Below are positions 7,003 to 33,788 of a DNA stretch of 64,000 bases, piece by piece. Within the stretch, counting starts at the first letter, position 1. Each line of letters starts with the position of its first letter. The position numbers were made by a program, and so were the translations under genes. Under the pieces are notes generated by a model. The model was not told where the DNA came from, ran no database searches, and saw only the letters and a list, made by a program, of their open reading frames with translations. The DNA comes from Candidatus Gastranaerophilales bacterium (GTDB taxonomy: Bacteria > Cyanobacteriota > Vampirovibrionia > Gastranaerophilales > Gastranaerophilaceae). The stretch spans positions 2,619 to 66,618 of the forward strand of contig CALUTN010000183.1 in the NCBI GenBank assembly GCA_944323665.1, read 5' to 3'.

Positions 7003-7063
7003 TATTACTCCAGAAGTTCCACTATTAGCTACTAAAGAATCTCTATAATAATTTAAAAGATCA

Positions 7064-8014
7064 TATCGTATTATCTTCCATCTGAGTCGTTAATTCAGAA
7101 GCGTTCTCTAATGAACTGCTCTAGTTTTCACTAGAAGTTGAGACTATATCATATTTTATATTTTCTAATATTGTTGGTAACAATTCGTTAGTAAATGTTT
7201 CAGTAGAAGAATTATATTCCCATTTATTAGGTTTATATAAGTTAGGTCTAATAATTTTTTTTAATTTAGTTTCAAACTCTTTACATTGTAAAGCATCTTC
7301 AAAAGTATGAATAAATATAACTTCTATATTATATCCTAATGCTTTATATTCTCTAAATCTTCTTACCTTACCATTATCAGTAATATAAGATACTCCTAAT
7401 TTATAAAAACTTTCATTTTCATTAAAAAGTTTTATTAAATAAAAAGTATTAGATTTTTCCCAAAATTTATTACATTCTGGACATCCAGATCCTAAAAATA
7501 TAGAATCAGAATCTACAGATTGTTTACCATGAATAGGACATATTAGAGTAACTCTCCCTTTATGTCTATCTGTGGAATCTACTTCAAAATCGTACTTATT
7601 ATTATATAAAAATAATAATTGATTTTTAAAATATTCTTTTCTATTTACTGCAGTTCTTATAGTAGGTATATGTCCATGAATTAAATTGTCAGGATTTACA
7701 CTAACTAATCCATATTTAGTATTAAATAACATTTTTTGTTTCATTGTTACATATTCTGAAGCAGGAGTAACTAATTCAGCTATTTTAGGCTATTCGATTT
7801 TAAGCATTCCCATAAAATATTCTGTTTTATTTAAAGCCATTTTAATAGTAGGTTTACCTCTAAAAATAGCTCCTGCTTTTGGAATACTCAATATTCCATA
7901 TTTATCTTCTACTAAAATAGGAAAATTTAAACCTTTAAATTTACTAACTACTTTTAATTCACCTTTATATTCTTCGGTTACTTTCTTTTTAAATTCTTCT
8001 TCGTTAAGTTTCAT
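7064..8014 (-). CDS. T5orf172 / GIY-YIG-superfamily-like putative homing endonuclease, with one in-frame TAG at 7790 joining track ORFs 7790..8014 and 7121..7744
   Basis: The two track ORFs are in the same frame, separated only by TAG plus 15 codons. C-terminal pattern FYLIKL..FYKLGVS...RRFREYKALGYNIEVIFIHTF. The N-terminal half contains a duplicated segment (PTIKMALNKTEYF and PTIRTAVNRKEYF). The end is either the TAG at 7121 or the TGA at 7061. Confidence 0.45.
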
Positions 8015-8245
8015 AACTACTTTTATTTTTAATTAAACAATAAAATTATATAAAATTCCCGCACTTCGAACCACTTGGTTCTACATAATAGTCGTTGAGC
8101 CTTCAATTAAGCTTGGCTGCTGATTGTCCAATCTTATCCTTGTTCATCATTTCATTTACATGAAACTATAGATAAGCTCTAAGGAGTTTCCAGCAATTCA
8201 CGGGATTTAAACAGGACCGATATATTAATCCTGTAGATGAGCACA

Positions 8246-9364
8246 TTTAAGTATTAAAGAATAGGGCTATTGAGACCTATTTAAAAAATAAACTCCATTA
8301 ATTGATAATGAACAATAATTTGGATTATCTTTAGATCTTATTACATTTTTATCTTCTCCTCTAAGTATAAACATATCTTCCCCTATTCTAATAGTACTGT
8401 ATCTTCTCATTATGAAATTATCATCAGTTTCTAACCACTCAATTTCATAAACTGGTATTAATTGAAATCTTGTAGAACTATATTCATTATCTGGATATCC
8501 AGGAATAGTCTCATTAGTTTCTTTTCCATCATTTACAGTAATGCATGAATCAGCTGTAAAAACCCTTTGATATATAGCAGCCCCATCACTATCATACCAA
8601 TCATCTTTTAATTGCTATAAGTCTTTTTTAGATAGTTCTTTTCCATATTTTGCTAATATTTGATTTTTTGTTAACCAATGTCTTACCACAGATCTATATG
8701 AATTTTTAACATATGGAGATTCTGGATTTCTATCTATAAAAGTGTTTAATGGATTTAATACTTCTATCTCTATATTAGAACCACTAGAAGACTATTTCAC
8801 TTTAAAGAAAGTATATCCTGTTATTAATAAATCAGTTAAGAGCTACCTTAGTTTTGTTATTAAATCTGTTTCTCTGGATTGCAATATATACTAAACAATA
8901 TACTATGCTGCTATTTCAAATTGGGATATAAATGATTGATCTATTTCCTGTACTATTTTATCTAGCTAATCCTTTATTGTTTTATCTGTTATATCTTTTC
9001 CATCTATAAATCTTAAAATAGAATTGTTTAAATGAGCTTTTAAAAAATTAACAACTCCTTCTAATATTTTTAATTGCTTCTCTCTGGTAATACTAGATAT
9101 AGTTTCAGAATCTTTACAAGATATTTTTGGAAGTATCGGAGTTCCTAAATATTCTCCAACTAATGCATCAATATGTTTTTTTAATAAAGGTGTAAATTCT
9201 ACTGATGTTGGACTTCCTATTCCAAAATTCTCTTCTAAATATTTATACTATTCTGGATCTCTTTTTCCATTATAATAATTGTAAGCTTTTTGAAGTTCCC
9301 ATTTATTGTATACTAATTCAGAGATAGCTTTATTAGTTTTATCAATAAGTTCTTTGTCTGTCAT
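8246..9364 (-). CDS. TAG-recoded protein downstream of terminase, tentatively portal-like; N-terminus MTDKELIDKTNKAISELVYNKWELQKAYNYYNGKRD...
   Basis: ATG at 9362-9364. Frame followed by hand through at least 10 TAG codons to the TAA at 8246-8248. Position after TerL and the YNYYNGK motif suggest portal, but at about 372 aa it is short for a portal protein. Confidence 0.35.
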
Positions 9365-9584
9365 TACATAAATTTATATATTCTGGAGGAAGTTTAGTTG
9401 CACCAAAGTATTTAACTCTTTGAAGTTTTCTTTTTCTTAATTCCTCTTTAATAAAGGGTAGAAATTCTTCATCTGGTAAATCAGCAATAATAACCAATGG
9501 CATTTCTGATCTGTCAAAATTAAACGATACTTTATAACCAATCGGATTTAATGGTAATATTTCAATACCTCCTATATATTCCAT
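9342..9584 (-). CDS. Hypothetical 80-aa protein (no TAG)
   Basis: Track ORF. Overlaps the TerL 3' end and the start of the portal-like gene. Confidence 0.3.
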   Translation of the reverse strand: MEYIGGIEILPLNPIGYKVSFNFDRSEMPLVIIADLPDEEFLPFIKEELRKRKLQRVKYFGATKLPPEYINLCNDRQRTY

Positions 9585-11919
9585 CTAATATAGTTCTCTA
9601 ATGTAATCTAGGATCACTTGTTTCAATTCCGTAGTTGTCATTATAATTTTCTCTAGATATATTAATTTGTATATACTATTTCTTCGGTATAACACCATGT
9701 CTTATATAACCTTTTTCATCTCTATAATATCCAAAATCCTAAAATTCTTCTTGTTCCTTTATTACAGTGGTGGGCTGTCTTCCAGATAGTTCTTGGTCAG
9801 CTAATTCTGTCATACCCATTGCTGCTATAATATCAAACTTACCTTTATTTTCATCATTATAACCAGTAAGCTAATCTAGCATTTCTTCAAACCATATAGT
9901 ATGACAATAATCTTCTACAAAATTAGCAGTTAAGTCAGTATGTAGTTCTATTATAAGTTTAGTAGCAGGAGTTCCATACTATTTAGTAGTACCGTTTTTA
10001 ATATCAGTTAGTGTAGCTCTTGGACGTTTCATAAAATATTGTAATCCTTTATTTTCTTTGGCCCAAGTAACCATACCCATACGAGTAGCTTCTATATTTA
10101 TTTTGCAATTATAGTATCTAGCTAAACACATAGCTATTTTATATGCTTCTCTAATATTTCCTGGTCTATCCTTATACATAGCAACATACTATGGATCATT
10201 AAGTCCAAATGCTCTCTTTTTAATTGTTATACAAAATTCAGAAGGATCTCTAGTTTCTTTAGAAGTCTGATTAGCACCAATATCAATTCCGTCTATTCCA
10301 GCTACATATAAATCATTCATTTCTTTGTATACTGGAATATTAAATTCCTCACCTTTTTCCTCTGCTTCCTATTTTAATTTAAGCATTTTTTCCTAATATA
10401 ATTCTGACCAGATTGGATGCTCCAGTATTTTAACTTTTCCATTTTGGTTCGGAATCCATTTAAATCCTGATATATTTTCTAAAGAATGCTAATTATTTTT
10501 ATAGTAATAATCTATTATTCCAGATTCTGGTCTAGGACCTTGTTTATGAAGTCTAATAATTGCTAACTAATTAGCAATATTAATTTTATTAAATTTATTT
10601 ACTCCTTCAAGATTAAAGGCTTCCTCAGCATTCCAGCATCTTTCGGCGCACTTCTTTAGATATTCTTCTGGTACTGCTAATAAATTATCTCTTTCTTCCT
10701 AAAGAAATTTTTTATATTCATCAATATTACAAACCCCTCTATTATCCATAAATTCTGGATTTAGTGACTATAGAAAATAAGGAATAAAAAAACCACTTTC
10801 TATTGTAGTCCCATCCTAAGTCCAATTATGTCTAAAAGGTAGTATCTTAAATGATCTGGGATTATAATATATTTTTTTAAGACCTTCTAATGGTGCTCCC
10901 ATATCTCCTCCTGTTCCACCAAATAGCATTGTACCTCTAGGAACACCCTGTACTTCACATAATTCCTATCCTTGTACAACTGCAGTAGTAAGTCCTGGCC
11001 ATGAACCTGCTTCATCATATATTAATAAATCAACACGATCACCACGAATATTGGATGGTTTAGAACCGTTAATAGCTAAAACTTCTGATTGAAATCCTAT
11101 ATCTTCAAACTAACCATCTACCTTTATCTATTTTCCAGACTTTTTTCTTAAATCTTGATCTATAAGTCTTCTTTTAAAGAATCCTCCTCCAGTACAAGTA
11201 TTTAAAAAAGTTAAAGCATGATCAAATTTATTGAATGTACCTTTTAAGAAAGTGTCATTGAAGCAAGTAATCATTACTCTACTTTTTCTAATTACTGAAT
11301 ACATTCTTGCAGATAAAGAAGCATTTATTTCAGAAAAACCAATTGAACGAGCTTTCATTAAAGCAGCATGTTTATGAAGAACCCTTGCCATCTATAAATA
11401 ATGAAAGAACATGTAATGAGAAGCAAAAAATATAGGAAAGTCATCATTAGTTCCAGAACCAGAAGCCTAGTTAGCATCAATAGTAGGTAACTAATAAAAG
11501 TTTAAGAAAAAATAGTTATCTCCAGTTATAGTATAACCATTAACTGTCATTCCATATTTACATCTTCTATATTGCTCTTTCCAAAATTCGTTATATCTTT
11601 TACTATCTTTTAAGTAGGGGCAATACTTTCCAGTTTTCTTATATATTTCTCTAGTTTCAGTAAACCAATTAGGATTAAAATCTAATCCATGGGTTTTATC
11701 AATTGGTTTATATCCAGTTAATTCGTATGATAATGTAGGATCAAATACATCTATTTTTTCGTCTTTTTTTACATCCCAATAGTCTGGATCTTTAGATCTT
11801 TCTTCTCTTAATTTCTATATTACTTCTCTTGTTTCCTTTATATCTTTTTCGTGTTCTTCTTTCTTTATCTAATCTATTATTTCTTGTACTTCAGATACTA
11901 TTTTCTTTTTTCTTCCCAT
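9562..11919 (-). CDS. terL: Terminase large subunit, TAG-recoded (about 785 aa; more than 10 in-frame TAG)
   Basis: Hand translation joins track ORFs 11128..11391 and 9979..10179 plus the intervening segments in one frame. Motifs include ...YGMTVNGYTITGDNYFF..., ...NTCTGGGFFKRRLIDQD... and ...VDLLIYDEAGSWPGLTTAVVQG(Q)ELCEVQGVPRGTMLFGGTGGDMGAPLEG... The gene ends with TGA at 9562-9564 and starts with the ATG at 11917-11919. Confidence 0.6.
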
Positions 11920-11921
11920 AA

Positions 11922-12483
11922 TTAAAAATCTCCTGGGTCAAATCCATCTTCTCCTCCACCTCTTATAGTAGACTGTTCAGTAAGTTCTTTTTTAACTTCA
12001 TTTTCTAAAGTAACCAATTCCTCATGTACTTTATGTAATTGAGCCATTTCTTTCATTACTTTTTCAGCCTAAAAAATAGGTTTACCGTTATTATCTCTCT
12101 CATTTAAATCTACTATAGTATCAAAATAATCTATAAACTAATCTGCAGCTCTTTTAGCTGCTTCTAATAATTTTATAGATTTATTGGAATCCTATAAAGA
12201 TCTATATTTTCTACAAGCTTCTCTAAATATAGGATCATTAAATTCCTATTCAGTTAAACCGGAATCACTTAAAGCTTCTTCATGCCTTTCTTGTTCTGTA
12301 TATTGATTATAAGGACTCTTCCAATCTATAGCTAGATAAATATAAGATAACTCTCTTTCTAATCTTTTCTTAGATTTAGTATTATCTCTCTATAGAAGAT
12401 TTTTGAATTCTTTAACCAGTAAAATTTCCGGTTCATTAATTTCTAGGCTTTTAGTCAAAGAATTAAAATTAAAGATATTCATA
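11922..12483 (-). CDS. Terminase small-subunit-like protein, TAG-recoded (about 186 aa)
   Basis: ATG at 12481-12483. Several in-frame TAGs. The TAA stop is 5 nt upstream of the TerL ATG. Assigned by position; no motif recognised. Confidence 0.35.
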
Positions 12484-12502
12484 TTAGTTATTTTCTAATA
12501 TT

Positions 12503-12900
12503 TACTTTTTTAAATTTTTAGATTTCTTCTATTCTCTATCCTATTTAAATTTCTAAACTATATTTAACTTTTTACCTTCTTTAGCTGATTTATCTTTTGC
12601 TATCTATTTACATACTTTACATACTCTTCCTCCTACTTCAAAATAGGATACTTCCTGTCCTTCTGGACAAATTCCTTTAAGCTTTTTATAATATGTAAGT
12701 TTAGATCCCAACTATGCTTTTACGCTATTACCTTGCATCATTTGCATAAACTGCTAATATTTAGCTTTTATCCCTTCTTCTCCTAGCTATTCTGCATATG
12801 ATTGTAAATCTTGCTCTGATTGAATCTATACACCTTGAGCAGCAGCATCCTAAACTAAAAACTGTAAAAATGCTTTCTATAATTCTTCCTAATTATTCAT
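12503..12900 (-). CDS. Small Gln-rich TAG-recoded protein (MNNQEELQKAFLQFLVQDAAAQGVQIQSEQDLQSYAEQLG... if TAG=Q)
   Basis: Hand translation. At least 9 in-frame TAGs in Q-rich context. TAA at 12503-12505. Confidence 0.4.
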
Positions 12901-12931
12901 AGTTCCTCCCTATTGTTTTTTCTCTTTCATA

Positions 12932-13147
12932 TCATTCATTTACTAAAATTAAGTCCTTACTATTAAAAACTGCTTCTTGCATTAATCCAGAAGTAGTAAA
13001 CCATCTACATCTCAATCCTTTAAAATTAGGTGAATCTTTAAATAAAGAATTTTCTTTTCTAATTACTAACATAACGGGGGATTGCATTACCCTATTCTAT
13101 CTTAGAGTAACACAATCACCTGGTTTAAAGTATAATTTTTCTTCCAT
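12932..13147 (-). CDS. DUF2158 (YodC)-like small protein with one in-frame TAG
   Basis: MEEKLYFKPGDCVTLR(TAG)NRVMQSPVMLVI...CRWFTTSGLMQEAVFNSKDLILVNE. The pattern resembles the YodC family PGDVV.LKSGGP.MTV...C.WF. TGA stop. Confidence 0.4.
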
Positions 13148-15258: not shown

Positions 15259-15930
15259 ATGGATAATTTAAAATTAATTGGATGTCAAATTTTAAAAAAT
15301 GGCTCTGGAATTCATATTAAAAAAGAAAACAGAGGCAAATTTACTGCTGCTGCTAAAAGAGCAGGTAAATCAGTACAAGAATATGCTAGATCAGTATTAA
15401 ATAATCCAAATGCCACTCCACTACAAAAAAAGAGGGCTAATTTTGCTCGGAATAGTAAGAAATGGAAACATCAAGAGGGAGGAATACTATAGGCAGCAAC
15501 TGGATTAATTCCTATATATGGAACTTATTTAGATTATAAACAATTTGAAGATAATCCATCATTAAAAAATTTTGGTAATATGGCTTTAAGTGGAATTGGA
15601 GACATTCTATAGTTAACTGGTTTAGGTTATGGACTTGGAACAGCAATTAAGGGACTTAAAGCAGCAAATACTGCTAGAAAAACAGTGAAAACTATACAAG
15701 CTACAAGGATTGCTACCAGATTAGCTAATCAAAAGAAAATGTTAGAAAGGGGAGATATAGGGAAAAAAGCCTTTTAGGGTTGGGTATAGTCTGGAAAGAA
15801 TTTAAAAAGAATTAATGAGAAAGTAGATAAAGCAAATCAATAGAGAAATAGAGCTACTAAGATTTTTGGAATAAGTTTAATTGAACCTTCAATAGAGGGC
15901 TTCTAGATATATAATAATCTTAAAAATTAA
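15259..15930 (+). CDS. TAG-recoded protein (223 aa; at least 5 in-frame TAG) of unknown function, possibly virion-associated
   Basis: Track ORF 15259..15492 ends at a TAG. Hand read-through stays open to the TAA at 15928-15930. Confidence 0.45.
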
Positions 15931-15933
15931 TAT

Positions 15934-16584
15934 ATGCCTTTTAAATCAACTTTGGTAAATTGTAAGTAGTGTGGGAAAGAGTTGCCTCACAATAGAACTT
16001 ATTTTCGCAGAATAGTTACTAACAAAAAAGAACATTATTCAGAAATATGTAAAGAATGTGAAAATGAAAATAAGATAAACTAGGAATGGAAAGATGGAAA
16101 ACTTAGATGTCATATATGTGGATAGTATAAAAATGAAGATTGTTTTCCTATCAGTGATCATTATATATATAGAAATTATAGAGATAGTAGATGTACAAAA
16201 TGTAAAGGAATACAAAATAAGAAAGCAAAAGACAAGTACTCTGATGAAAAAAGATTATAGTATGTATTAAATAGTAGACTATTGGCTGCTAAGAATAGAG
16301 CTTTTTCAAAAGATATTGAATTTCAACTTTCCCTTTAGGATTTGATCAAATTGTGGAATAAGCAGAGCGGAAAATGTGCAATTTCTGGAATACCTATGAC
16401 ATATGAATTAAATTAGGGAAGAGTATTTTCTAATGTAAGTATAGATTAGATTATTCCCGGAAGAGGTTATATTCCAGAAAATATTTAGCTTGTTTGTATG
16501 GCTGTTAATTAGATTAAATCTGATTTTGATATGTAGACAGTTTTGTATATATGTAAACAAATTATTAATAATTATGACACATAA
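15934..16584 (+). CDS. HNH endonuclease with zinc ribbons, TAG-recoded (216 aa; 9 in-frame TAG)
   Basis: Hand translation gives ...CAISGIPMTYELN(TAG)GRVFSNVSID(TAG)IIPGRGYIPENI(TAG)LVCMAVN(TAG)IKSDF..., an HNH-type D-x-IIP...N..L.C...N..K core. TAA stop. Confidence 0.55.
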
Positions 16585-16715
16585 GATAATATAGGATTTT
16601 AGAAAGAATAGGAACGCTGCTAAATGGAAACATGAAGATGGATCTAAGATCCATAAACCTTATGGTCATAGATCAATATTAGATAATGGGTGGGAACCAA
16701 CTAAAAGATTAAAAT

Positions 16716-17216
16716 ATGGAAAATTTGGGTTTATTAAAACTAATTAAATTATTATTTAATTCAAAACCTTCTGAATGTAAACAGATTGAATTATTATCTT
16801 CCAAATATTTACCATTTAAAAATTTTAAATTTATGATGTGGTGTGGTAAAATAATATATAGAAAAGATAAAGAAAATATTGTTTTGAGATATTTAAATAC
16901 CTTTTATGGGGAGAAAAGTAAAAGACATGAATAGTTCCACATAAAATAGGCTAAAGTACATGGAAAAAATTCATGGATTTTTTATTATTTAATGTATATA
17001 AAAGAGTGGCTTAAAGGTATACCATTTTTAAAACCTTTTTATCATGCTTATTATACTATACCTTTTGAAGTAGAGGCTTATGCTTTAGAAAATAATTAGA
17101 ATAGTTTAGATAATTATGATTAGTCTAAATTGAAAAATTTATATACATTAAAAGATAGAAGAAAAACTTATTTAGATAATAAAGATAACTGGAAAAATTA
17201 TGTTAAATAGTTATGA
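16716..17216 (+). CDS. TAG-recoded hypothetical protein (166 aa; 5 in-frame TAG)
   Basis: Track ORF 16716..16934 ends at a TAG. Read-through gives a clean ORF to the TGA at 17214-17216. Confidence 0.45.
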
Positions 17217-17440
17217 ACGATTTTATTAAGTAGATATTTAATTCTCATTCTGGAGTTAGTAGTAAGAGAATATGTGGGGTTATAGGATGGCTAATATGTA
17301 TGGGAGTTTTAATTTATTGTACTATTAATTCTATATAGGCACCCATTATTATGGATACTGTTTTATGGTGCTGTATAGGTTTATTAGGAATAGATTCTGT
17401 AACAGGTATATGGAAAAAATTTGATAAACCAAATAAGTAA
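17213..17440 (+). CDS. Small membrane protein, holin-like, with 2 in-frame TAG
   Basis: MNDFIK(TAG)IFNSHSGVSSKRICGVIGWLICMGVLIYCTINSI(TAG)APIIMDTVLWCCIGLLGIDSVTGIWKKFDKPNK. One or two transmembrane segments. Confidence 0.4.
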
Positions 17441-17444
17441 GATT

Positions 17445-17690
17445 ATGAAAAATATATATAATCAAATTCTTAATTTTATTAATTAGAAAGATAAAATTTA
17501 TCATATATGTGCTAATATTATATTGATATTAATAGGAAATATTATTAATATAGTATTTGGAGTAGTATTAGCTATATTGGCATCTTTAGGAAAAGAAATA
17601 TATGATATGAAAAATAGTTCAGGATTTAGCAAATAGGATTTAGTAGCAGATTTAATAGGAATTATAATTGGAATATTATTAGTGTTATGA
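17445..17690 (+). CDS. Small membrane protein, holin-like, with 2 in-frame TAG
   Basis: MKNIYNQILNFIN(TAG)KDKIYHICANIILILIGNIINIVFGVVLAILASLGKEIYDMKNSSGFSK(TAG)DLVADLIGIIIGILLVL. Two transmembrane segments. Confidence 0.4.
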
Positions 17691-18126: not shown

Positions 18127-18134
18127 AAAAAATA

Positions 18135-18168
18135 CCCAGCTGAGATAGATTCTCAGTTGGGTATTTTT
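18135..18168. terminator. Bidirectional rho-independent terminator between convergent genes
   Basis: Hairpin CCCAGCTGAGA-TAGAT-TCTCAGTTGGG followed by a T-run. A-run on the other side. Confidence 0.6.
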
Positions 18169-18460
18169 ATTTAATTATACTACTTTTACAAGGATCTTTT
18201 ACTAATATTCCCATTTCTGTAATATTTTTCCATTTGGGATCATCTTTAAGTTCTATAGAACTAATTGTTTTCCAAGGTGGTAACATAGGATCACTAGTGT
18301 CTGATTTATTCCACCAAAATTTATTTCCAGGAGGATAATTAATCTTACTATAATCGGTTGTTTCTACAATGGCATCTATAATCTCTATTAATTTATCCAA
18401 ATCATACTCTGGAAATTTTTTATGTAAATTAATTAATGTATTTTTAAAGTCAATGGGCAT
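18167..18460 (-). CDS. Hypothetical protein (97 aa)
   Basis: Track ORF with TAA stop. Confidence 0.4.
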   Translation of the reverse strand: MPIDFKNTLINLHKKFPEYDLDKLIEIIDAIVETTDYSKINYPPGNKFWWNKSDTSDPMLPPWKTISSIELKDDPKWKNITEMGILVKDPCKSSIIK

Positions 18461-18577: not shown

Positions 18578-18928
18578 TTATTTAATATGTATATCAGTAA
18601 TTCGTTCATAATCTTTATAGTCTTTAATGTAAGAATTTTCTAAATTTGGGTATATACTTGTAATAGTATATCCAGTTTTTGGATTTTTAAAATAATATAA
18701 TTTTATCTCGTTTTCATTTTTCTCAACTTCTGGGTTTATGACTTTATTCCAATGGTTATATCTTTCATCTAATTTTGACATATTATTATCAAATTCCCAT
18801 TCTTCTAATATTTTTATTGGTTGAGATTCTTTCTTTAATTTTTTCTCTATGTTATTAGTTTTACATAGAGTATCATTTTTTAGATAAATTGCTGCTTTCA
18901 TTTTAAAATAATTTTGTAGTCGGGGCAC
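18578..18928 (-). CDS. Hypothetical protein (116 aa). Its 5' end overlaps the 3' end of the suppressor tRNA by about 9 nt.
   Basis: Track ORF with TAA stop. Confidence 0.35.
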   Translation of the reverse strand: MPRLQNYFKMKAAIYLKNDTLCKTNNIEKKLKKESQPIKILEEWEFDNNMSKLDERYNHWNKVINPEVEKNENEIKLYYFKNPKTGYTITSIYPNLENSYIKDYKDYERITDIHIK

Positions 18929-18993
18929 TGGGACTCGAACCCAGAACTTCTGATTTAGAGTCAGACCCGTTGACCAATTACGACCATACCCCA
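18920..18993 (-). tRNA. Amber suppressor tRNA, anticodon CUA (reads UAG), with a tRNA-Gln-like body
   Basis: Hand fold of the minus-strand sequence TGGGGTATGG...TCTGA-CTCTAAA-TCAGA...CTGGG-TTCGAGT-CCCAG-TGCCCCG-A. The acceptor has 7 bp (2 G-U). The T-arm is perfect. The anticodon loop is C-T-CTA-A-A. The 5' UGGGGUAU and the weak 1-72 pair resemble E. coli tRNA-Gln and its supE derivative. Confidence 0.75.
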
Positions 18994-19138: not shown

Positions 19139-19486
19139 TCATTCACTTATTAAACTATTTAAATATTCTATTTTATCCATAACTGCTGAATATAAAGTAT
19201 CTTTAAATAACTATATTCCTAAATCTATGGTATCTGAATTATTTATATAATTCTCAATTTCTCTTATTTTATCTCTTCCTAATCTTTCACAAACTTCTAC
19301 AAATAAATTATCATCTATTTTTTCTAAAAATTTCGTAAAATTTTCTAGTTTATTATCTTCTTGATACTGTATTTCTATATTTAGAGAATTATCTTTTAAA
19401 TTAACTTTTATTTTTAATCCGTCTTTATTATATTCTCCGTTTTTTATAACAGTTTTAATAAGCTATTCTAACTATTTAGTTTCCAT
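19139..19486 (-). CDS. TAG-recoded hypothetical protein (about 115 aa; 3 in-frame TAG)
   Basis: Hand translation METK(TAG)LE(TAG)LIKTVIKNGEYNKDGLKIKVNL...DLGI(TAG)LFKDTLYSAVMDKIEYLNSLISE. TGA stop. Confidence 0.4.
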
Positions 19487-24427: not shown

Positions 24428-24500
24428 TCCTCCATAGCTCAGTTGATAGAGCGCTTGGCTTTGGCCTAAGAGGTCGCAGGTTTGAGTCCTGCTGGAGGAG
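24428..24500 (+). tRNA. tRNA-Gln(UUG)
   Basis: Hand fold. Acceptor TCCTCCA/TGGAGGA is perfect. D-arm GCTC...GAGC. Anticodon stem CTTGG/CTAAG with loop CTTTGGC. T-arm GCAGG-TTTGAGT-CCTGC. Confidence 0.7.
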
Positions 24501-25008
24501 CTATGAAGCAGCTTTAGAAGCTTTTGGGAAGAACAGACTATAATGGGTACGCCCTGAGACTAATGCAGAGCATCTCTTATTTCAAACAGTATGTCCTTGA
24601 TACTGGAGAGATGTCTTATCGTGAGATAAGGCAAAGTATTGTGGCACAGGATAGTCGTTTCATGTTGTTATTTCTTTTTGTATCCCCACAGCGGTGGGGT
24701 TTCTCCTAAGATAAGAACAACCTTTACGTGGTTTAGGAGATAAGTAAGCCAAATGCTAAAACTAATAGCCTTAATTAAAAACTAAAATAACTTTCCAAGT
24801 TGTTGAGGACACCTTAGTTCTTTACTATTAAACTAGTATGTAGACGGCAAGAAAAACAACCAAGACGTGCAACTAGATGTAAAGTTTTAGGTGTAAAACA
24901 CAAAAAAGAAAATAAAATGAAAGAATTAATCTTAATTGCTGCAATATTCATTATAGCAGCAATAATAATGAATTTTATATTATCATATAATTATAGGAGA
25001 AAATAAAT

Positions 25009-25260
25009 ATGTATACAACACTAGTTTTATCTGTAGAAAATTCTGATAATCTAGAAATACTGGAATCAGAAATAATCTCTTTTATGGGAAGTAAAAATCT
25101 AATTGACAATAGTCTAAATGTTTTTCTCTTTAAAGAGAAATTATCTAATTTGGACAAACAAAGGTTATTAGGAAAAGTAAAGAATTTAAATTGCGACATC
25201 ATGTTCATAGAACATAATAATTTTGAAATATTTGAAGACATTAATACAGTGAAGTTATGA
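25009..25260 (+). CDS. Small hypothetical protein (83 aa)
   Basis: Track ORF. Confidence 0.3.
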   Translation: MYTTLVLSVENSDNLEILESEIISFMGSKNLIDNSLNVFLFKEKLSNLDKQRLLGKVKNLNCDIMFIEHNNFEIFEDINTVKL

Positions 25261-25493
25261 GACCGAGAATAAAAACAAACAAAATATGTTCTTCTAAAAA
25301 TTATAAAGAGAGTAAAAAAGTATATGCCAGAGCTTTAGAAAGATGGCATGAAGAACATAAAGAAGAAATTGAGGTTATATCAGCCTCAATTTCTGTAAAA
25401 AGAACAAAATACATCTCAGTTTTTGGAAAACTTATCCCAGTATCTGAAGAAGAGTTGAAAGTTCATGAAACATTAATAACATGGAATACTTAA
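25257..25493 (+). CDS. Small basic hypothetical protein (78 aa)
   Basis: Track ORF. Confidence 0.3.
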   Translation: MRPRIKTNKICSSKNYKESKKVYARALERWHEEHKEEIEVISASISVKRTKYISVFGKLIPVSEEELKVHETLITWNT

Positions 25494-25593
25494 TTTGCAC
25501 AATAATAGTTATATTTATATGTGCAGCAGCTATAGAATAATTAACATTTATTAACTATTAAATTATAACTGCTGTACATATAGTTGTAAACAA

Positions 25594-25667
25594 GCTCCGA
25601 TAGCTCAATGGATTAGAGCATCATCCTTCTAAGATGAGGGTTCTGTGTTCGAATCACAGTCGGAGTA
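25594..25667 (+). tRNA. tRNA-Arg(UCU)
   Basis: Hand fold. Anticodon stem TCATC/GATGA with loop CTTCTAA. T-arm CTGTG-TTCGAAT-CACAG. Acceptor GCTCCGA/TCGGAGT. Confidence 0.7.
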
Positions 25668-25959
25668 CAATAATTATATGGAAAGTAGGCTTAGAAGTAG
25701 CCATCTTTTAAAGAGTATGCAAAAAGTGCCATATAAGTGCTAAATGATAATATAGTTAATAGATATTATTGATGTACTATAATGGAAATATCCACAACAT
25801 GAATCTGCCCGATACATTTTGAGAAAAGTCACTCATTAGATAGTATTTGAGTTACTATTAGTAACGTATATAAGGTAGTAAGGCGAGGTTATGAACTCAT
25901 TTTCGGTAAGACATACGAGAATATTTTGGTGTAATAACACACCATATAATTATTATTTA

Positions 25960-26003
25960 GGGCCTTTAGCTCAGTAGGTCAGAGCAGCTAATTGTGAGTT
26001 AGA
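25960..26003 (+). pseudogene. 5' portion of a tRNA-His(GUG)-like gene (acceptor strand, D-arm and complete anticodon arm), separated from its matching 3' acceptor strand
   Basis: GGGCCTT-TA-GCTC-AGTAGGTCA-GAGC-A-GCTAA-TTGTGAG-TTAGA. No complementary AAGGCCC follows within tRNA distance. The matching 3' end lies at 26563..26587. Confidence 0.4.
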
Positions 26004-26037
26004 TAGGGACGTATCCCCTCAAGCTTATACACTAAAT

Positions 26038-26109
26038 CTTGAGGTCTGCTAATGGTTAGGCTCGATGTCTTATACACATCCAATCTAGGTTCAAGTCCTA
26101 GCCTCAAGA
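26038..26109 (+). tRNA. tRNA-Ile(UAU)-like (anticodon TAT, reads AUA)
   Basis: Acceptor CTTGAGG/CCTCAAG is perfect. Anticodon stem GATGT/ACATC with loop CTTATAC. T-arm CTAGG-TTCAAGT-CCTAG. The D-stem has only 3 bp. Confidence 0.6.
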
Positions 26110-26112
26110 CTT

Positions 26113-26535
26113 ATGAAAATCAAATCTGAAGGAAAATCTGGAACACGCTCTATTTGTGTTTGCTAGAATTGTGGAGAGGAGTTCTCTGAATTAAATACAA
26201 AAATTAGAGCTGGAGGCGGGAAATTCTGTTGTAATGATTGCTATAAAGAGTTCCGCTCCAAGAACAAGAAAGATCCAAAGGAACTGAATAGATTATATCA
26301 GAAGAAGCATAAATATGGTTTGAATAAGGAGGAATATTATTCTTTATTTGAATCTTAGCAGAATAAGTGCGCTATATGTGGAACTTCTTTTGATGAAACT
26401 AAAGCATTTGTCGACCATGATCATTAGACAGGAAAAGTAAGAGGATTATTATGTACTAAGTGTAATACACTTCTTGGTATGGCTAACGATAATGTCGAAA
26501 TATTAGAAAATGCTATAAAGTATCTAAATGTATAA
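26113..26535 (+). CDS. Endonuclease VII-family (recombination endonuclease VII) protein, TAG-recoded (140 aa; 3 in-frame TAG)
   Basis: Hand translation ...CAICGTSFDETKAFVDHDH(TAG)TGKVRGLLCTKCNTLLG... This is the hallmark DHDH-x-TGKVRGLLC..CN motif of phage endonuclease VII. TAA stop. Confidence 0.6.
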
Positions 26536-26562
26536 GACGGTAGAAAGGGTAGTCGGTCGCAC

Positions 26563-26587
26563 GTGGGTTCAAACCCCTCAAGGCCCA
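26563..26587 (+). pseudogene. 3' portion of the tRNA-His-like gene (T-arm plus acceptor 3' strand AAGGCCC-A), complementary to the 5' acceptor at 25960
   Basis: GTGGG-TTCAAAC-CCCTC-AAGGCCC-A. The motif CCCCTCAAG also occurs at 26015-26023, which suggests a direct repeat at the insertion junction. Confidence 0.4.
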
Positions 26588-26596
26588 CAATAATTA

Positions 26597-26669
26597 GGAA
26601 TTTTGGCAGACACGGTGTATGCAGCGGACTGAAAATCCGTCTAATGTGGTTCGAATCCACAAAATTCCA
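26597..26669 (+). tRNA. tRNA-Phe(GAA)
   Basis: Acceptor GGAATTT/AAATTCC is perfect. Anticodon stem GCGGA/TCCGT with loop CTGAAAA. T-arm TGTGG-TTCGAAT-CCACA. Confidence 0.7.
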
Positions 26670-27025
26670 CGCGATAGGGCAACGAAACTTCATCGTTGTA
26701 AGACAGAGTTAAGGCGCATATAAAACAATAAGATACCATAGAAATTGAAAATCAGTATACTCTGTTAATAACTGATAAGTAAATGAAGTAATGGGGTGTG
26801 TAATGTGCAGAATTATAGTATAAATCCAAACAACCTGCCTACATTACATAGACAATAATTTATATTAGTAAAAGTTTGGTCAGAATGTATTTTATATATT
26901 GAAACTTAAACGGTAGTAATACGTAGCGAATAAAAGTCCAAGTGATTAGGTCACAAGATTAGTGTTTAAGGATTAGGCTTTTATACCATACATTAATCTT
27001 ATATATAATATACATTCTGTATAAT

Positions 27026-27060
27026 GCCCCGATGGTGAAAGTGGTAGACACGTCAGATTT
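27026..27060 (+). tRNA. tRNA-Leu(UAA) exon 1 (acceptor, D-arm, anticodon stem 5' strand plus U32-U34)
   Basis: GCCCCGA-TG-GTG-AAAGTGGTAGA-CAC-G-TCAGA-TTT | intron. Confidence 0.6.
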
Positions 27061-27876
27061 AGAAAAAGAAATGTTCTTTTTATTAATCTATTTTAACAGA
27101 ATTTTATAGGAAGTCACAAATTTTTATTATATCTTTGTGTATATAAAAATATACATAATGAGTAAAAGAAAATGGACTGATGAACAACTGATTAAGGCTG
27201 TTAAAACTAGTTTATCTTATGCAGAAGTAATGAGAAAATTAGGACTTAAAGCAGCTGGCAGTAACTATGATACTGTTAAGAAAAAGATTAAAGAATATAA
27301 TTTAGATACTTCACATATGACTGGTAAAGTTTGGAATCAAGGAGAACGATACAAGCCAGTTAAAACTTCCAGACCTTTAGAAGAAGTTTTAGTAGAAAAC
27401 TCTACATGGGTAAATACTAATAATTTACGTAAAAGACTTCTTAAGGAAGGTATCAAGGAATATAAATGTGAGTGTTGTGGCAGGACAGAGTGGTTAGGAA
27501 AACCTATAGCTCTAGAACTGCATCATGTAAATGGTATAAAAGACGATTTAAGGATAGAAAATTTACAACTTCTGTGTCCTAATTGTCATGCCTTTACTGA
27601 TAATTATAGAGGAAAGAACAAGGGTATGGATGCCCAAGAGGAAACTCTTGGAGTAGAAGCAGGCTAATTCGGTGAAGGTATCAGCCCTATAAATGGTAAT
27701 AACGCCGAGCTAAGTTAAAAAGAATAAGATAACAAGAACCTCTGTTAAGCTAGAACGTAGCTTCATACGGATGAACTTACTTCTTTTTATAAATGTGTAG
27801 AGACTATACACCTGCAACCTAAGTCAGAATTGATATGGTTAAGACATAGTCCAAGCAATCTTTTATAGATTGTATG
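27061..27876 (+). mobile_element. Group I intron inserted between U34 and A35 of tRNA-Leu(UAA). It carries an HNH homing endonuclease ORF.
   Basis: The 5' exon ends in U and the intron ends in G (omega-G). The exons reconstitute a class-II tRNA (loop TTTAAGC). Intron core GTGTAGAGACTATACACCTG...ACCTAAG closely resembles the P7/R region of the Azoarcus pre-tRNA-Ile group I intron (TGTAGAGACTAGACGG...CACCTAAGG). Confidence 0.6.
27137..27667 (+). CDS. HNH homing endonuclease (176 aa) encoded within the tRNA-Leu group I intron
   Basis: ...CECCGRTEWLGKPIALELHHVNGIKDDLRIENLQLLCPNCHAFTDNYRGKNK... is a canonical HNH motif. No TAG. Confidence 0.65.
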   Translation: MYIKIYIMSKRKWTDEQLIKAVKTSLSYAEVMRKLGLKAAGSNYDTVKKKIKEYNLDTSHMTGKVWNQGERYKPVKTSRPLEEVLVENSTWVNTNNLRKRLLKEGIKEYKCECCGRTEWLGKPIALELHHVNGIKDDLRIENLQLLCPNCHAFTDNYRGKNKGMDAQEETLGVEAG

Positions 27877-27927
27877 AAGCTCTGATGGCCAGTAATGGCC
27901 GTGTGGGTTCGAGTCCCACTCGGGGTA
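27877..27927 (+). tRNA. tRNA-Leu(UAA) exon 2 (A35-A36, anticodon stem 3' strand, long variable arm, T-arm, acceptor 3' strand)
   Basis: AAGC-TCTGA-TGGCCAGTAATGGCCG-T-GTGGG-TTCGAGT-CCCAC-TCGGGGT-A. Confidence 0.6.
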
Positions 27928-28140
27928 CTATTTATTAACTTTAAATTTATTAGATTATGTACATTTTGGTAATATCCCCTAAAGCATTTATATGCTTTAA
28001 TGGAAATGAGATGATAATAACAGCAAGTGTCAACAAAGCAACTCCATTTGATACAATAGGAGAAGCTATGAAAAAAGCAGTTTATGCAAATGAGGCTCTA
28101 GATACATGTTGTATTAGAGTAATGAGTTTATGATAAAAGG

Positions 28141-28212
28141 GATTCTGTAGCTTAATGGTAGAGCACCAAACTTTTAATTTGGGTTATCTGAGTTCAAATC
28201 TCAGCAGAATCA
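28141..28212 (+). tRNA. tRNA-Lys(UUU)
   Basis: Acceptor GATTCTG/CAGAATC. Anticodon stem CCAAA/TTTGG with loop CTTTTAA. T-arm CTGAG-TTCAAAT-CTCAG. Confidence 0.7.
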
Positions 28213-28255
28213 CTCAAATAAATTAAAATGAAAAATTTATTAGAAAGATTAAAAA

Positions 28256-28618
28256 ATGAAAACAATTAATGTTCTAGAGCTTACTAAAGCCCTAAATACC
28301 ATGAGAATGGCTCAACCTGAAATGGATTTAAGAGAATTTAGAAAACAGGTTGAAGATTTAGTTTCATATAAAATGTTCTCATCCTATTTATTGGATGAAC
28401 AGTTTGCTTACAAATTAAATAATAAAGTAGTATTTTCTACTAAGCCTATTTATAAGGTAAAAGTAGAAAAACTTTTAAAAGAAGCAAGAGAATCTCAGTA
28501 CAGATATACTGAGAATTATAAGAAAAAGAAAAAGAATAAAAATGAAAAACTTTTAGAATCAATAGCTTATCTGAAAAGTTTAGGTTATATTATTATTAAT
28601 CCTAAAAGTATATTGTAA
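28256..28618 (+). CDS. Hypothetical protein (120 aa)
   Basis: Track ORF at the start of a dense plus-strand operon. Confidence 0.45.
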   Translation: MKTINVLELTKALNTMRMAQPEMDLREFRKQVEDLVSYKMFSSYLLDEQFAYKLNNKVVFSTKPIYKVKVEKLLKEARESQYRYTENYKKKKKNKNEKLLESIAYLKSLGYIIINPKSIL

Positions 28619-28860
28619 TGGATATATTATCAATAGCAATTATATTGTTTACTCTTATTGTTGCAATATTACATTTCCTTGCTGATAAACATCCTTCTAC
28701 TACTCTAAGTTTATTAATTATAGCTAGTCTTTTAATAATTAATGATATACTTAAAAGTAATGAACCTAAAGCTATTGATGTGTATAGAAAAAGAACAGCT
28801 TTACAAGTAACTTTCAAAGATAGTATCCCAATAGATACTGTTGTAATTTTTAAAAAATAA
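28618..28860 (+). CDS. Small membrane protein (80 aa, 2 transmembrane segments)
   Basis: Track ORF with hydrophobic segments. Confidence 0.4.
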   Translation: MDILSIAIILFTLIVAILHFLADKHPSTTLSLLIIASLLIINDILKSNEPKAIDVYRKRTALQVTFKDSIPIDTVVIFKK

Positions 28861-28863
28861 AAT

Positions 28864-29253
28864 ATGTGTTTAACTAAAAAATATAAATGGCCGAGGATTA
28901 CTCTTCGGCCTAAAATCGTTTATAAGGTTTTAGAAAAAAGAAACGGAAAGTTTTTTACCCCTTTTATGAATTATGAAGTAGAAATTAATAAAAAATATAA
29001 GGGAAAATATAACATGTTCGATACTTTATTTAAAACTATAAAAGATGATTATGTTAGAAGTGGATTTATTCATTCTTATACAGATAAAGAATCTGCTGTA
29101 GGAAATGTAGTTGTTGAATGTATTATTCCAAGATTTACCCTATATTTTATAGGGAGGGGTAATGACATAGCCAGTCGTAAAATTTATTATAAAAGTCTTA
29201 TAATAGATAAAAGTGATAAAATTATAATTAATCCAGACCATCCTATATTTTAA
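28864..29253 (+). CDS. Hypothetical protein (129 aa)
   Basis: Track ORF. Confidence 0.45.
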   Translation: MCLTKKYKWPRITLRPKIVYKVLEKRNGKFFTPFMNYEVEINKKYKGKYNMFDTLFKTIKDDYVRSGFIHSYTDKESAVGNVVVECIIPRFTLYFIGRGNDIASRKIYYKSLIIDKSDKIIINPDHPIF

Positions 29254-29254
29254 C

Positions 29255-29461
29255 ATGGAAAAGAAAGAGTTCAAATTGGGAGAAGTGTTTCAGTGTGGAC
29301 ACGTTAAACTAAAAATTGAAAAATCTGATTTTATTTGTGGTGGATGCTATTTTTTAGGTTCTTCTTTAGATTGTAGATCAATAAATAGACTAATAACAGG
29401 TAGCTGTATTAAATCTGAAAGAAAAGATAAAACCGATGTAATTTTTGTAAAAGTGGAGTAA
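29255..29461 (+). CDS. Small Cys-containing protein (68 aa)
   Basis: Track ORF. Confidence 0.35.
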   Translation: MEKKEFKLGEVFQCGHVKLKIEKSDFICGGCYFLGSSLDCRSINRLITGSCIKSERKDKTDVIFVKVE

Positions 29462-29522
29462 TAGTTATGAAATTAACATTTAGAAGAAGAACGCGCTGAA
29501 TATGAAAGATTAAAAGCTAAGT

Positions 29523-29783
29523 TTGAAAATGAGTAAATATTCAAGAACAAGAAAAGCAATATGTCGTATTAATCATTTAAACATTTGGATGGTTAGCAGA
29601 TGGTATTTTAAAAGATACCCTGTTAGAACTATGAAAGAGTCTTATAAAAGAAAACGTAAGAGGTATTTAAAGTATTGGAATAAACTGCCAGAAGGATATT
29701 CCTATATTACGGGAAAATCACTTCCTTTTCCTTGCAAATATAAAGAAGCATTAAAACATTTTATTTTATATCATGAGTGCTAA
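29523..29783 (+). CDS. Small basic protein (86 aa)
   Basis: Track ORF. Confidence 0.35.
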   Translation: MKMSKYSRTRKAICRINHLNIWMVSRWYFKRYPVRTMKESYKRKRKRYLKYWNKLPEGYSYITGKSLPFPCKYKEALKHFILYHEC

Positions 29784-30267
29784 TAAATTAAAACTATTGC
29801 CATATTATCATGAAAATTATGATAGTATAGCCAAAGAAGCAGAAGAAACTGGAAATTATGTCTATAATAACTGGTGGTATCTTCACGGTAAATTAGAGGA
29901 TATACTACATTATGATAAGGCTAGCATTATTAATGCCAAAGAATGTCCTGAATTTATAAAAATGGTTCCCGAAGCAGAAAAATTAGGAGGTGATGGAACT
30001 ATTTGGACTGGAAGAGTAAAATCTTTTAAATTTATTCCCTGGTTATATCTTAATGATATAGTAGAATGTGAAGTTCTTGGAATTGAAGAACCATGTGTGG
30101 GATATTTCTGGACTACAGATGAATTAGCCATGACAATAACTTCTGAATCTGGAGAATGTTTTGACGATCATCATTGGTTTCAAAGAGGATTAATTTGTTT
30201 AAAATCCGATATTGAAAGTTGTGAGTATGCACTTAAAAAGTTTACCGAAAAAGAAACATTTTTATGA
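29773..30267 (+). CDS. Hypothetical protein (164 aa)
   Basis: Track ORF. Confidence 0.45.
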   Translation: MSANKLKLLPYYHENYDSIAKEAEETGNYVYNNWWYLHGKLEDILHYDKASIINAKECPEFIKMVPEAEKLGGDGTIWTGRVKSFKFIPWLYLNDIVECEVLGIEEPCVGYFWTTDELAMTITSESGECFDDHHWFQRGLICLKSDIESCEYALKKFTEKETFL

Positions 30268-30482
30268 AAAAGATTCTATTTTTATTAGTAGTTGTATTAC
30301 TATACAGTTGTGAATATAATACTTCTGTTAGAATAAGTCCAGAAGGAAGCGTACCATTTACTTTTATAACTCATTTTGAGTATAAAAATCATCAGTATAT
30401 CAAATTTGAGACTAATGGATGTGATTCTAGAATAGGTGGGGTAGTTCATGATCCAGATTGTAAATATTGTAATAAGAAATAA
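30264..30482 (+). CDS. Small lipoprotein (signal peptide MKKILFLLVVVLLYSC)
   Basis: Track ORF with a lipobox-like LYSC. Confidence 0.4.
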   Translation: MKKILFLLVVVLLYSCEYNTSVRISPEGSVPFTFITHFEYKNHQYIKFETNGCDSRIGGVVHDPDCKYCNKK

Positions 30483-31002
30483 TATGGTAAATCTTTATTA
30501 TTTAGTAGCTGCTATTGCATATGGTATTTTTATTGTCCAGTTTATCTTATCTTGGTTTGGTGGAGACACTGATCTTGATGTAGATTTGGATGGAAATTTT
30601 GATATGGATGTTGGTGATTTAGTATCATTTAAAGGTTTAATCCATTTTCTAATGGGTTCTTTTGGATGGTTAAGTATTAAAAATCTAACATCTGAAGTTC
30701 AATGGTACGATTTTCTGATAGCTTTAGTTATCGGAATACTGTTTGTAACTATACTTTACTATTTATATAAACTTGTTTTACGTCTTCAACATCAAGTAAT
30801 TCCAGAAGAAGGGGAAGATTTAATTGGAAAATCTGGTATTATCTATTTAAAAATGGGAATGTTTAGATATATTCTAACAGTAGAAATAAATGGAGGAACA
30901 GAAGAAATTAGAGCCTATCCCGAAAATTCTGATTTATCTTATGAAATAGGAGATCAGGTAGTAATTACTAAATTTGAAGACAAATTTTATTATTTTAAAT
31001 AA
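30448..31002 (+). CDS. NfeD-like membrane protein (N-terminal transmembrane segments plus a C-terminal beta-barrel/OB domain), partner of the flotillin
   Basis: Track ORF. Hydrophobic N-terminus with a soluble C-terminal domain, sitting immediately upstream of the SPFH gene as in yuaF-floT-type operons. Confidence 0.4.
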   Translation: MIQIVNIVIRNNMVNLYYLVAAIAYGIFIVQFILSWFGGDTDLDVDLDGNFDMDVGDLVSFKGLIHFLMGSFGWLSIKNLTSEVQWYDFLIALVIGILFVTILYYLYKLVLRLQHQVIPEEGEDLIGKSGIIYLKMGMFRYILTVEINGGTEEIRAYPENSDLSYEIGDQVVITKFEDKFYYFK

Positions 31003-31012
31003 CAAATAAATT

Positions 31013-32989: not shown

Positions 32990-32995
32990 ATTGTA

Positions 32996-33044
32996 GGCAT
33001 AGGGACATTTAATAGTAAAGTATAGTTAGTCCCTATGCTTTTTT
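32996..33044 (+). terminator. Rho-independent terminator after the flotillin gene
   Basis: GGCATAGGGAC...GTCCCTATGC stem followed by TTTTTT. Confidence 0.6.
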
Positions 33045-33787: not shown

Positions 33788-33788
33788 T

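Follow-up and report, generated by a model that had tools for sequence, protein, structure and literature searches.

How the TAG codons that interrupt the structural and packaging genes of a large phage are read is the question raised by a stretch of 64,000 nucleotides (hereafter the window) from the Candidatus Gastranaerophilales bacterium assembly GCA_944323665.1 (contig CALUTN010000183.1, positions 2,619 to 66,618 of the forward strand). On its minus strand lies a tRNA gene with the anticodon CUA, which the original prediction, made from the letters of the DNA and its open reading frames (ORFs), took to be the decoder of the TAG-rich late genes. That claim gains support from four lines of comparative sequence evidence, namely the tRNA calls, the division of in-frame TAG by gene class, the exchange of TAG with glutamine codons and covariation among related genes. 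We therefore regard the gene as a probable functional amber-suppressor tRNA of a Zeta-type crAss-like phage in which TAG is read as glutamine, with a probability of about 0.88. From these data we infer that UAG is decoded by this particular tRNA, that glutamine is the amino acid it carries, and that it may play a temporal role.

The suppressor tRNA gene and its fold

Analysis of the whole window with ARAGORN returned 12 tRNAs, and the minus strand holds the suppressor only, called at 18919-18993 with the anticodon cta at position 36. The Rfam model RF00005 aligned over its full length to 18920-18993 on the same strand; its 52.5 bits exceed the gathering score of 29, with E 2e-8 for a search of the whole window. 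Both calls concur with direct reading of the sequence, which matches exactly the 74-nt minus-strand fold proposed originally, including its CUA anticodon in a C-U-CUA-A-A loop of seven nucleotides. Read 5' to 3', the tRNA is UGGGGUA / UGG / UCGU-AAUUGGUCA-ACGG / G / UCUGA-CUCUAAA-UCAGA / AGUU / CUGGG-UUCGAGU-CCCAG / UGCCCCG / A. In the Rfam alignment, a 3-nt linker (UGg) joins the acceptor stem to a D stem of 4 bp (UCGU/ACGG) that closes a D loop of 9 nt. U1 pairs with G72, and A73 serves as the discriminator. The gene does not encode the CCA end, the bases after A73 being CUA. Single-sequence minimum free energy folding did not yield the cloverleaf (z = -0.99, not significant), an outcome that is common for tRNAs, so that the structure is supported by the covariance model and by covariation instead. 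Of the remaining tRNAs that ARAGORN or Rfam detected in the window, none could read UAG.

ARAGORN names the gene tRNA-Pyl, which is its default name for the anticodon CUA. The architecture of tRNA-Pyl comprises a 6-bp anticodon stem, a 3-nt variable loop, a very small D loop and a 1-nt linker between acceptor and D stems. In the suppressor, by contrast, the anticodon stem is 5 bp long, the variable loop 4 nt, the D loop 9 nt and the linker 3 nt, and the tRNA-Pyl identity was rejected.

Division of in-frame TAG by gene class

The window has a G+C content of 28.4%, and its coverage by ORFs of at least 100 aa rises from 50% under the standard code to 73% when TAG is treated as sense, compared with 53% when TGA is treated as sense. 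Over curated ORFs, the two late blocks (Table 1) contain 149 in-frame TAGs in 5411 codons, which corresponds to 56% of all TAG, CAA and CAG codons. All seven TAGs of the early replication and metabolism block stand at most 11 codons from an ORF start or 7 codons from an ORF end, indicating that each lies upstream of the real start or is a real stop closely before TAA or TGA. Off-frame TAG is similarly frequent per codon in both classes (0.034 late versus 0.027 early), and the contrast between late and early genes is thus confined to in-frame TAG. Every ORF terminates in TAA or TGA, and the point of gene divergence at ~15 kb coincides with a sign change of the GC skew. The TAG-free block encodes two helicases, nicotinamide phosphoribosyltransferase (NAMPT), a phosphoribosyl pyrophosphate (PRPP)-synthetase-like protein, a Tad2-like domain, an SPFH protein and a glucosaminidase. 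The tRNA would explain the reading of about a third of the window. The terminase, portal and tail genes fragment unless they are read with code 15.

The tRNA had been placed at the boundary between recoded and standard-code genes. This placement is approximately correct: the tRNA lies in a mixed zone, 1.2 kb from the last strongly recoded block and beside a TAG-containing gene, but 9 kb before the continuous TAG-free block. Elsewhere in the window, a single in-frame TAG occurs 2-6 codons before TAA or TGA in three ORFs (13149-13748 on the minus strand, 37339-37761 and 61460-62491 on the plus strand). These look like genes that end in TAG with a backup stop, in which suppression would add only a few residues; this pattern of a TAG end with a nearby backup stop has been described for Zeta phages (PMC12386605).

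TAG as a glutamine codon

The amino acid assigned to TAG was approached through the terminase TerL, whose 21 in-frame TAGs were masked as X and whose corresponding columns were read in 120 homologs of 72-88% identity. Glutamine accounts for at least 73% of residues in 14 of the 21 columns, against a glutamine background of 4.6%. However, the homologous genes are untranslatable under table 11, and their glutamines could be code-15 translations of TAG, which makes the column result possibly circular. This circularity was addressed by comparing TerL orthologs from five loci at the codon level. At conserved columns, including 265, 271, 319, 369, 385, 408, 452, 578 and 684, TAG in one phage corresponds to CAA or CAG in another. 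The partners of TAG codons are TAG (33%), CAA/CAG (28%), lysine (10%) and glutamate (10%) codons, and those of CAA/CAG codons are glutamine codons (37%) and TAG (33%), whereas TAG makes up only 2-3% of the partners of glutamate, lysine and leucine codons. Swaps between TAG and CAA/CAG are about as frequent as those between CAA and CAG. Such an exchange profile means that TAG behaves as a synonymous glutamine codon, and comparison at the nucleotide level thus indicates that TAG is glutamine in the recoded genes of the window. The other classic amber-suppressor amino acids, tyrosine, tryptophan and serine, were considered and rejected, as their codons show 0% exchange with TAG.

Conservation of the suppressor in related phages

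In four relatives reached through TerL (contigs L001, L002, L004 and L005), a tRNA(CUA) gene lies 6-9 kb upstream of TerL on the TerL strand, and tblastn revealed in all four a common order in which the tRNA is flanked by homologs of the two genes that adjoin it in the window, here called geneA and geneB. Wherever a relative's contig includes enough flanking sequence, this cassette with its tRNA(CUA) is present on the TerL strand. The shared gene order suggests that these tRNAs are positional orthologs, despite the identity of only ~70% between the window copy and the others. Alignment of 14 diverse suppressors uncovered double compensatory changes in 17 of the 21 stem pairs of the cloverleaf, with U1, A73 and all seven loop bases (CUCUAAA) being invariant. 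Three further relatives reached through geneB (L171, L172 and L173) contain near-identical copies that share the unusual D arm, U1.G72 and A73 of the window tRNA and differ from it in a compensatory manner, G5-C68 being replaced by A5-U68 and U6.G67 by U6-A67. As judged from these substitution patterns, the suppressor is a maintained functional lineage under purifying selection on its cloverleaf and no decaying copy. An exact 38-mer of the window tRNA had no match in IMG/VR, and blastn of the tRNA against GenBank phages retrieved only partial 38-nt matches to T5-like tRNA-Lys (E 5e-3), which are uninformative.

A second, unrelated tRNA(CUA) family is also present in the relatives (L001 at 671-742, minus strand, with L010, L013, L019, L026, L067 and L078; L002 at 1370-1442, minus strand, with L008, L017 and L034). 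Its members share 78-84% identity with tRNA(UUA) ochre suppressors and with a tRNA whose anticodon loop has 8 nt and for which ARAGORN gives the anticodon 'gcag'; no counterpart of this family was detected in the window. Some CUA tRNAs of relatives (L012, L015 and L037) have a long variable arm.

Phage affiliation and relation to known suppressors

A phage origin of the window is supported by PHROG matches of TerL, the portal and the tail fibre, and TerL matches Crassvirales terminases. In tblastn searches, no GenBank phage record exceeds 48% identity to TerL, and classified Crassvirales terminases share ~26% identity with it. Within the crAss-like phages, the Zeta group, for which the family Echekviridae has been proposed, is characterized by genomes of 145-192 kb, many introns and inteins, and many tRNAs including suppressors, with TAG read as glutamine or TGA as tryptophan mostly in late genes (PMC7886860, PMC12386605). 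The contigs of the relatives measure 165-195 kb, and the window contains a portal split by an endonuclease ORF and 12-13 tRNAs. In its sequence features, the window probably represents a large crAss-like gut phage of this type.

The suppressor resembles those of Zeta-type phages that use code 15 (Yutin 2021, PMC7886860; Borges et al.; PMC12386605) in being phage-encoded, in carrying the anticodon CUA and in accompanying a recoding that is limited to late structural and packaging genes. Standard-compatible replication genes, low GC (28%), many tRNAs, mobile endonucleases and TAG followed by backup stops are likewise shared with these phages. PMC9523058 reports, from metaproteomics, that TAG is glutamine in crAss-like phages, and Ivanova 2014, as it is cited in later papers, is among the closest sources on code-15 recoded phages. 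The differences are of degree: in the sub-lineage of the window, identity of the tRNA to the common Zeta-type suppressor does not exceed 71%, the first acceptor pair is U1.G72 and the linker between acceptor and D stems is 3 nt long. As far as a non-exhaustive screen could detect, no 'code change module' of release factor or aminoacyl-tRNA synthetase lies near the tRNA. In kind there is no difference from known code-15 phage suppressors, since earlier publications (2014-2025) already describe this class of tRNA, its amino acid and the role proposed for it. What is added to the known set is a divergent and well-conserved suppressor sub-lineage defined by U1.G72, A73 and the 3-nt linker, an addition of practical value given that a suppressor is detected with present methods in only ~40% of TAG-recoded phages (Borges et al.).

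Compared with the Escherichia coli suppressor supE (glnV, tRNA-Gln CUA), the window tRNA is likewise a predicted glutamine-inserting amber suppressor and has in common with it U1 with a weak 1-72 pair, G2-C71, G3-C70, U35 and A37. It differs at the discriminator (A73, where supE has G73), at position 38 (A38, where supE has U38) and at the 1-72 pair (U.G, where supE has U-A), and in its 4-nt variable loop. Moreover, supE is a point mutant of a resident tRNA-Gln, whereas the window tRNA is a dedicated, conserved gene unrelated to the tRNA-Gln(UUG) of the phage.

Resemblance to glutamine tRNAs and charging

The E. coli identity set for glutaminyl-tRNA synthetase (GlnRS) consists of a weak U1-A72 pair, G2-C71, G3-C70, G73, G10, U35, A37 and U38. 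The initial description of a tRNA-Gln-like body holds for the window tRNA at U1, G2-C71, G3-C70, U35 and A37, and fails at the discriminator and at position 38, the 1-72 pair being U.G. U1.G72 is kept in the three near-identical copies, and U1-A72 is found in most orthologs. U1-A72 together with A73 is the modal class for suppressors (19/31) and for phage-type tRNA-Gln, and it also occurs in phage Met, Lys and Ile tRNAs. The pairs at 2-71 and 3-70 are not conserved across the family, L004-type suppressors having C2-G71 and U3-A70. At position 10, the Rfam alignment assigns an extra G to the linker and U to the first place of the D stem, and the common orthologs have G10-C25. The resident tRNA-Gln(UUG) of the window carries G73; the suppressor is unrelated to it in sequence and is no recent copy of that gene.

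To compare isotypes, the identity of whole tRNA bodies, anticodons masked, was calculated for a panel of 742 tRNAs called by ARAGORN. For the window tRNA this did not discriminate between isotypes, yielding a tie at 71% among other suppressors, tRNA-Ile and a phage tRNA-Gln(CUG), the last of which has an identical anticodon stem, U1-A72 and A73. The nearest non-suppressor tRNAs of the abundant orthologs are phage tRNA-Gln(UUG), at 74-77% identity. A scan of viral contigs for the D arm of the orthologs, with the anticodon left free, returned 72 tRNAs with CUA, 16 with UUG, 12 with CAU and a few others. The same scan of 185,579 cellular genomes gave 43 matches, none of which is an ordinary bacterial tRNA-Gln; they comprise Patescibacteria tRNA-His, eukaryote-type tRNA-Gln on tiny contigs, and four phage-size contigs in bins of metagenome-assembled genomes. 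The scan hence points to no obvious bacterial donor of the suppressor.

GlnRS is able to accept or mischarge tRNAs with a CUA anticodon through U35. The charging enzyme is therefore most likely the host GlnRS, acting through U35 and the CUA anticodon, an argument that was likewise made for CUA tRNAs by Borges et al.

Proposed role and competing explanations

If the gene works as proposed, the infected cell would transcribe and process the tRNA and add its CCA end, which must be added because none is encoded, and a host enzyme would charge it with glutamine. The charged tRNA would then pair with UAG, so that about 150 in-frame TAGs in structural, packaging and neighbouring genes would be read as glutamine; replication and metabolism genes avoid in-frame TAG and should be readable with or without the suppressor. 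Several observations weigh against this interpretation. The tRNA deviates from the E. coli GlnRS identity set at A73, A38 and U1.G72. GeneA, just upstream of the tRNA, itself requires TAG suppression, which misfits a tRNA grouped with standard-code early genes, and the candidate lysin, the glucosaminidase at 41359-41880 (plus), lies within the TAG-free block, which misfits published accounts of lysis genes as the most recoded. A scan for sigma-70 promoters found 19 sites versus 20.2 expected, thus no enrichment, with a model unsuited to Bacteroidota or phage RNA polymerase promoters. Finally, no release factor or aminoacyl-tRNA synthetase was found among ~30 early ORFs searched in Pfam and PHROGs, a non-exhaustive screen that took in about 50 ORFs of the window, itself roughly a third of the genome.

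The alternatives differ mainly in what the suppressor is for. In the strong form of the timing switch, a model proposed by Borges et al. and also suggested in the original prediction, the tRNA would be the rate-limiting trigger of the late phase, in which late and lysis proteins would be untranslatable until it is expressed and the code change would clock the infection. Consistent with such a switch, recoding is strictly split by gene class, and the suppressor stands alone on the strand opposite to the remaining 11-12 tRNAs, in a short unit of its own that ends at a likely hairpin terminator; this separate placement fits separate regulation, without proving it. The TAGs in the first gene of the tRNA's own cassette and the lack of TAG in the candidate lysin nevertheless speak against it, and control of late transcription alone could yield the same timing. 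Neither Borges et al. nor PMC12386605 reports a test of the model, and a 2026 preprint restates it as current belief, likewise with no test reported. On balance the strong form is possible, although the odds lean towards its being wrong. A different purpose was proposed by Yutin et al. (PMC7886860), namely that such a suppressor acts mainly as a weapon against the host or its defences by readthrough of host TAG stops, with phage decoding being secondary. The same has been suggested for Zeta phages that possess CUA suppressors without TAG recoding (PMC12386605), and the window does carry anti-defence-type genes (the Tad2-like domain and NAMPT). As an account of the main function here it is unlikely, given that 56% of late-gene glutamine-type codons are TAG, which makes the decoder role indispensable; the two roles are not mutually exclusive.

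It is also conceivable that another amino acid (tryptophan, tyrosine, lysine, glutamate, leucine, serine or pyrrolysine) is inserted, or that the tRNA is a decaying pseudogene and TAG is read in some other way. The tRNA-Pyl label of ARAGORN, the presence of A73 and A38, which are no glutamine determinants in E. coli, and the ~10% each of lysine and glutamate among TAG-aligned codons could be cited for this, as could the detection by Borges et al. (2021/22) of TAG suppressors in only ~40% of TAG-recoded phages, which leaves room for other routes. However, the TAG profile mirrors that of CAA/CAG, lysine and glutamate are usual substitutes of glutamine, tyrosine, tryptophan and serine stand at 0%, the tRNA-Pyl architecture is absent, and covariation together with conserved close orthologs argues against decay. 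These possibilities are accordingly highly improbable.

A probable intron and mobile endonucleases at the suppressor locus of relatives

In seven relatives (L169, L170, L031, L055, L098, L105 and L116), an insert interrupts the suppressor precisely between U35 and A36. The closest relative of the window, L169, whose geneB is 93% identical, is among them. The insert measures ~240 nt, or ~1 kb where it includes an ORF of 270 aa for an HNH endonuclease (PF01844, E 6e-5). U is the last base of the 5' exon, and G that of the insert. In its short form, found in L055, the insert gives a full-length match to group I introns that is below threshold (16.8 bits versus a gathering score of 50, E 0.055) and contains the group I core motif GAUGAAGAAAUAGUCC, while the ORF-containing insert of L170 matched nothing in Rfam at E <= 1. 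Group I introns occur in the anticodon loops of bacterial and plastid tRNAs, for instance in cyanobacterial tRNA-Leu(UAA). Like these, the inserts of the relatives lie inside the anticodon, with U...G borders, the core motif and, in the long form, a homing-endonuclease ORF; they differ in having a phage suppressor tRNA as the host gene and in their insertion between positions 35 and 36, and the window copy is intron-less. The inserts are therefore probable group I introns, as far as their sequence and borders reveal. A literature search retrieved no description of a phage suppressor tRNA interrupted by an intron, which is no proof of absence.

The window tRNA represents the intron-less allele, and the geneB protein is identical between an intron-plus (L170) and an intron-minus relative (L171). 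In two relatives with an intact tRNA, a gene for a GIY-YIG endonuclease lies directly downstream of it, before geneB (L172 at 1578-2504 and L173 at 1710-2504). The suppressor locus is a hotspot for mobile endonucleases.

These observations allow a more elaborate proposal, in which the suppressor is the core of a conserved 'code-switch' cassette (geneA-tRNA-geneB, with or without the downstream geneC) and is regulated post-transcriptionally in its availability. The nearest relatives would then possess the decoder only after splicing of a mobile, probably self-splicing intron, and the intron-less allele of the window would be a homing target. GeneA, which would need TAG suppression for its own synthesis, could close a feed-forward loop, and geneB and geneC might assist suppression, for example against release factor 1. 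This proposal is quite unlikely to be correct as a whole. Nevertheless, should splicing gate the code change, the intron-plus/minus polymorphism would offer a direct way to test the timing switch, and this polymorphism and the conserved cassette are the only leads of higher potential at this locus.

The local cassette

The small minus-strand cassette that holds the suppressor is bounded upstream by a divergent intergenic region of 300 nt. GeneA, noted originally as a neighbouring TAG-containing gene, is real, and its tblastn alignments pass through the TAG positions in the four relatives reached through TerL. The overlap that had been reported between the tRNA and the start of an ORF at 18578..18928 turned out to be an artefact of a GTG at 18928 inside the tRNA, as all 18 of the 18 homologs of the geneB protein begin at the methionine of MKAAIYLKN, which corresponds to the ATG at 18901. 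The AlphaFold model of geneB is confident (predicted local distance difference test score of 83) and has no match among solved structures (best Foldseek PDB hit at E = 2). No PHROG family was matched by geneB or geneC, and among the same four relatives tblastn found geneC homologs in L001 and L002 only. At the downstream end, an 18-bp hairpin with flanking T/A runs between convergent genes is likely a bidirectional terminator that closes the cassette; the underlying hairpin scan observed 3 terminator-like sites versus 0.9 expected.

Table 1. Coordinates of the suppressor tRNA, its cassette and other features, in window positions unless a relative is named
Feature	Position	Strand	Description
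Amber-suppressor tRNA	18920..18993	minus	74 nt to discriminator A73; ARAGORN, Rfam RF00005, covariation, orthologs
Acceptor stem	18993-18987 / 18927-21	minus	UGGGGUA/UGCCCCG
D arm	18983-18967	minus	
Anticodon arm	18965-18949	minus	Stem UCUGA/UCAGA
Anticodon loop	18960-18954	minus	7 nt, CUCUAAA; ARAGORN, direct reading, Rfam alignment
Anticodon CUA	18956..18958	minus	Gene positions 36-38, canonical 34-36
Variable loop	18948-45	minus	AGUU
T arm	18944-18928	minus	CUGGG-UUCGAGU-CCCAG
geneA	19139..19486	minus	115 aa; directly upstream of tRNA; 3 in-frame TAGs (codons 5, 8, 92); conserved in relatives
geneB	18578..18901	minus	107 aa; TAG-free; start 18 nt past tRNA; conserved
geneC	18167..18460	minus	97 aa; TAG-free; final gene of cassette
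Hairpin, likely terminator	18128..18168		18 bp with flanking T/A runs; between convergent genes, downstream end of cassette
Recoded structural/packaging block	136..13147	minus	1-26 in-frame TAGs per ORF
Second recoded block	15259..17690	plus	5 ORFs, 2-10 in-frame TAGs each
Standard-code-compatible replication/metabolism block	28256..63972	plus	7 in-frame TAGs in 9452 codons
Tail fibre-like protein	136-1503	minus	PHROG match
TerL	9562-11919	minus	phrog_6681, E 2e-62; 21 in-frame TAGs
Portal, two pieces	8225-9364 (N part) and 6028-7002 (C part)	minus	PHROG match
Other 11-12 tRNA genes	24428..44958	plus	Inside or beside TAG-free block; include tRNA-Gln(UUG) 24428-24501; ARAGORN, Rfam
Split tRNA, relative L169	about 1424-2484		
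Split tRNA, relative L170	1380-2456		
Split tRNA, relative L055	664-952		

Other features of the window

The two parts of the portal are separated by an ORF for an HNH-type endonuclease (7061-8014; phrog_681/559), and the portal of the relatives is a single ORF of 724 aa. The interruption is probably an intron or a similar insertion; Rfam detected no group I intron at the portal at its gathering threshold. Two of the tRNA calls on the plus strand deserve mention. The tRNA at 40246-40318 was found by Rfam only (39 bits) and missed by ARAGORN, and its loop UUUGCAA implies the anticodon UGC (Ala), with a G3.U70 pair. ARAGORN also called a 'tRNA-Asn' of 85 nt at 40008-40092, for which the Rfam score is only 33 bits. 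A region of ~8 kb (20.4-28 kb) with few convincing ORFs and several tRNAs contains, on the plus strand, a RAGATH-14 RNA (21071-21249, 159 bits) and a Pistol self-cleaving ribozyme (22707-22779, 64 bits). Within the TAG-free block, NAMPT, the PRPP-synthetase-like ORF and the Tad2-like domain lie together at 49371-52669 (plus), forming an apparent cluster for nicotinamide adenine dinucleotide salvage and anti-defence.

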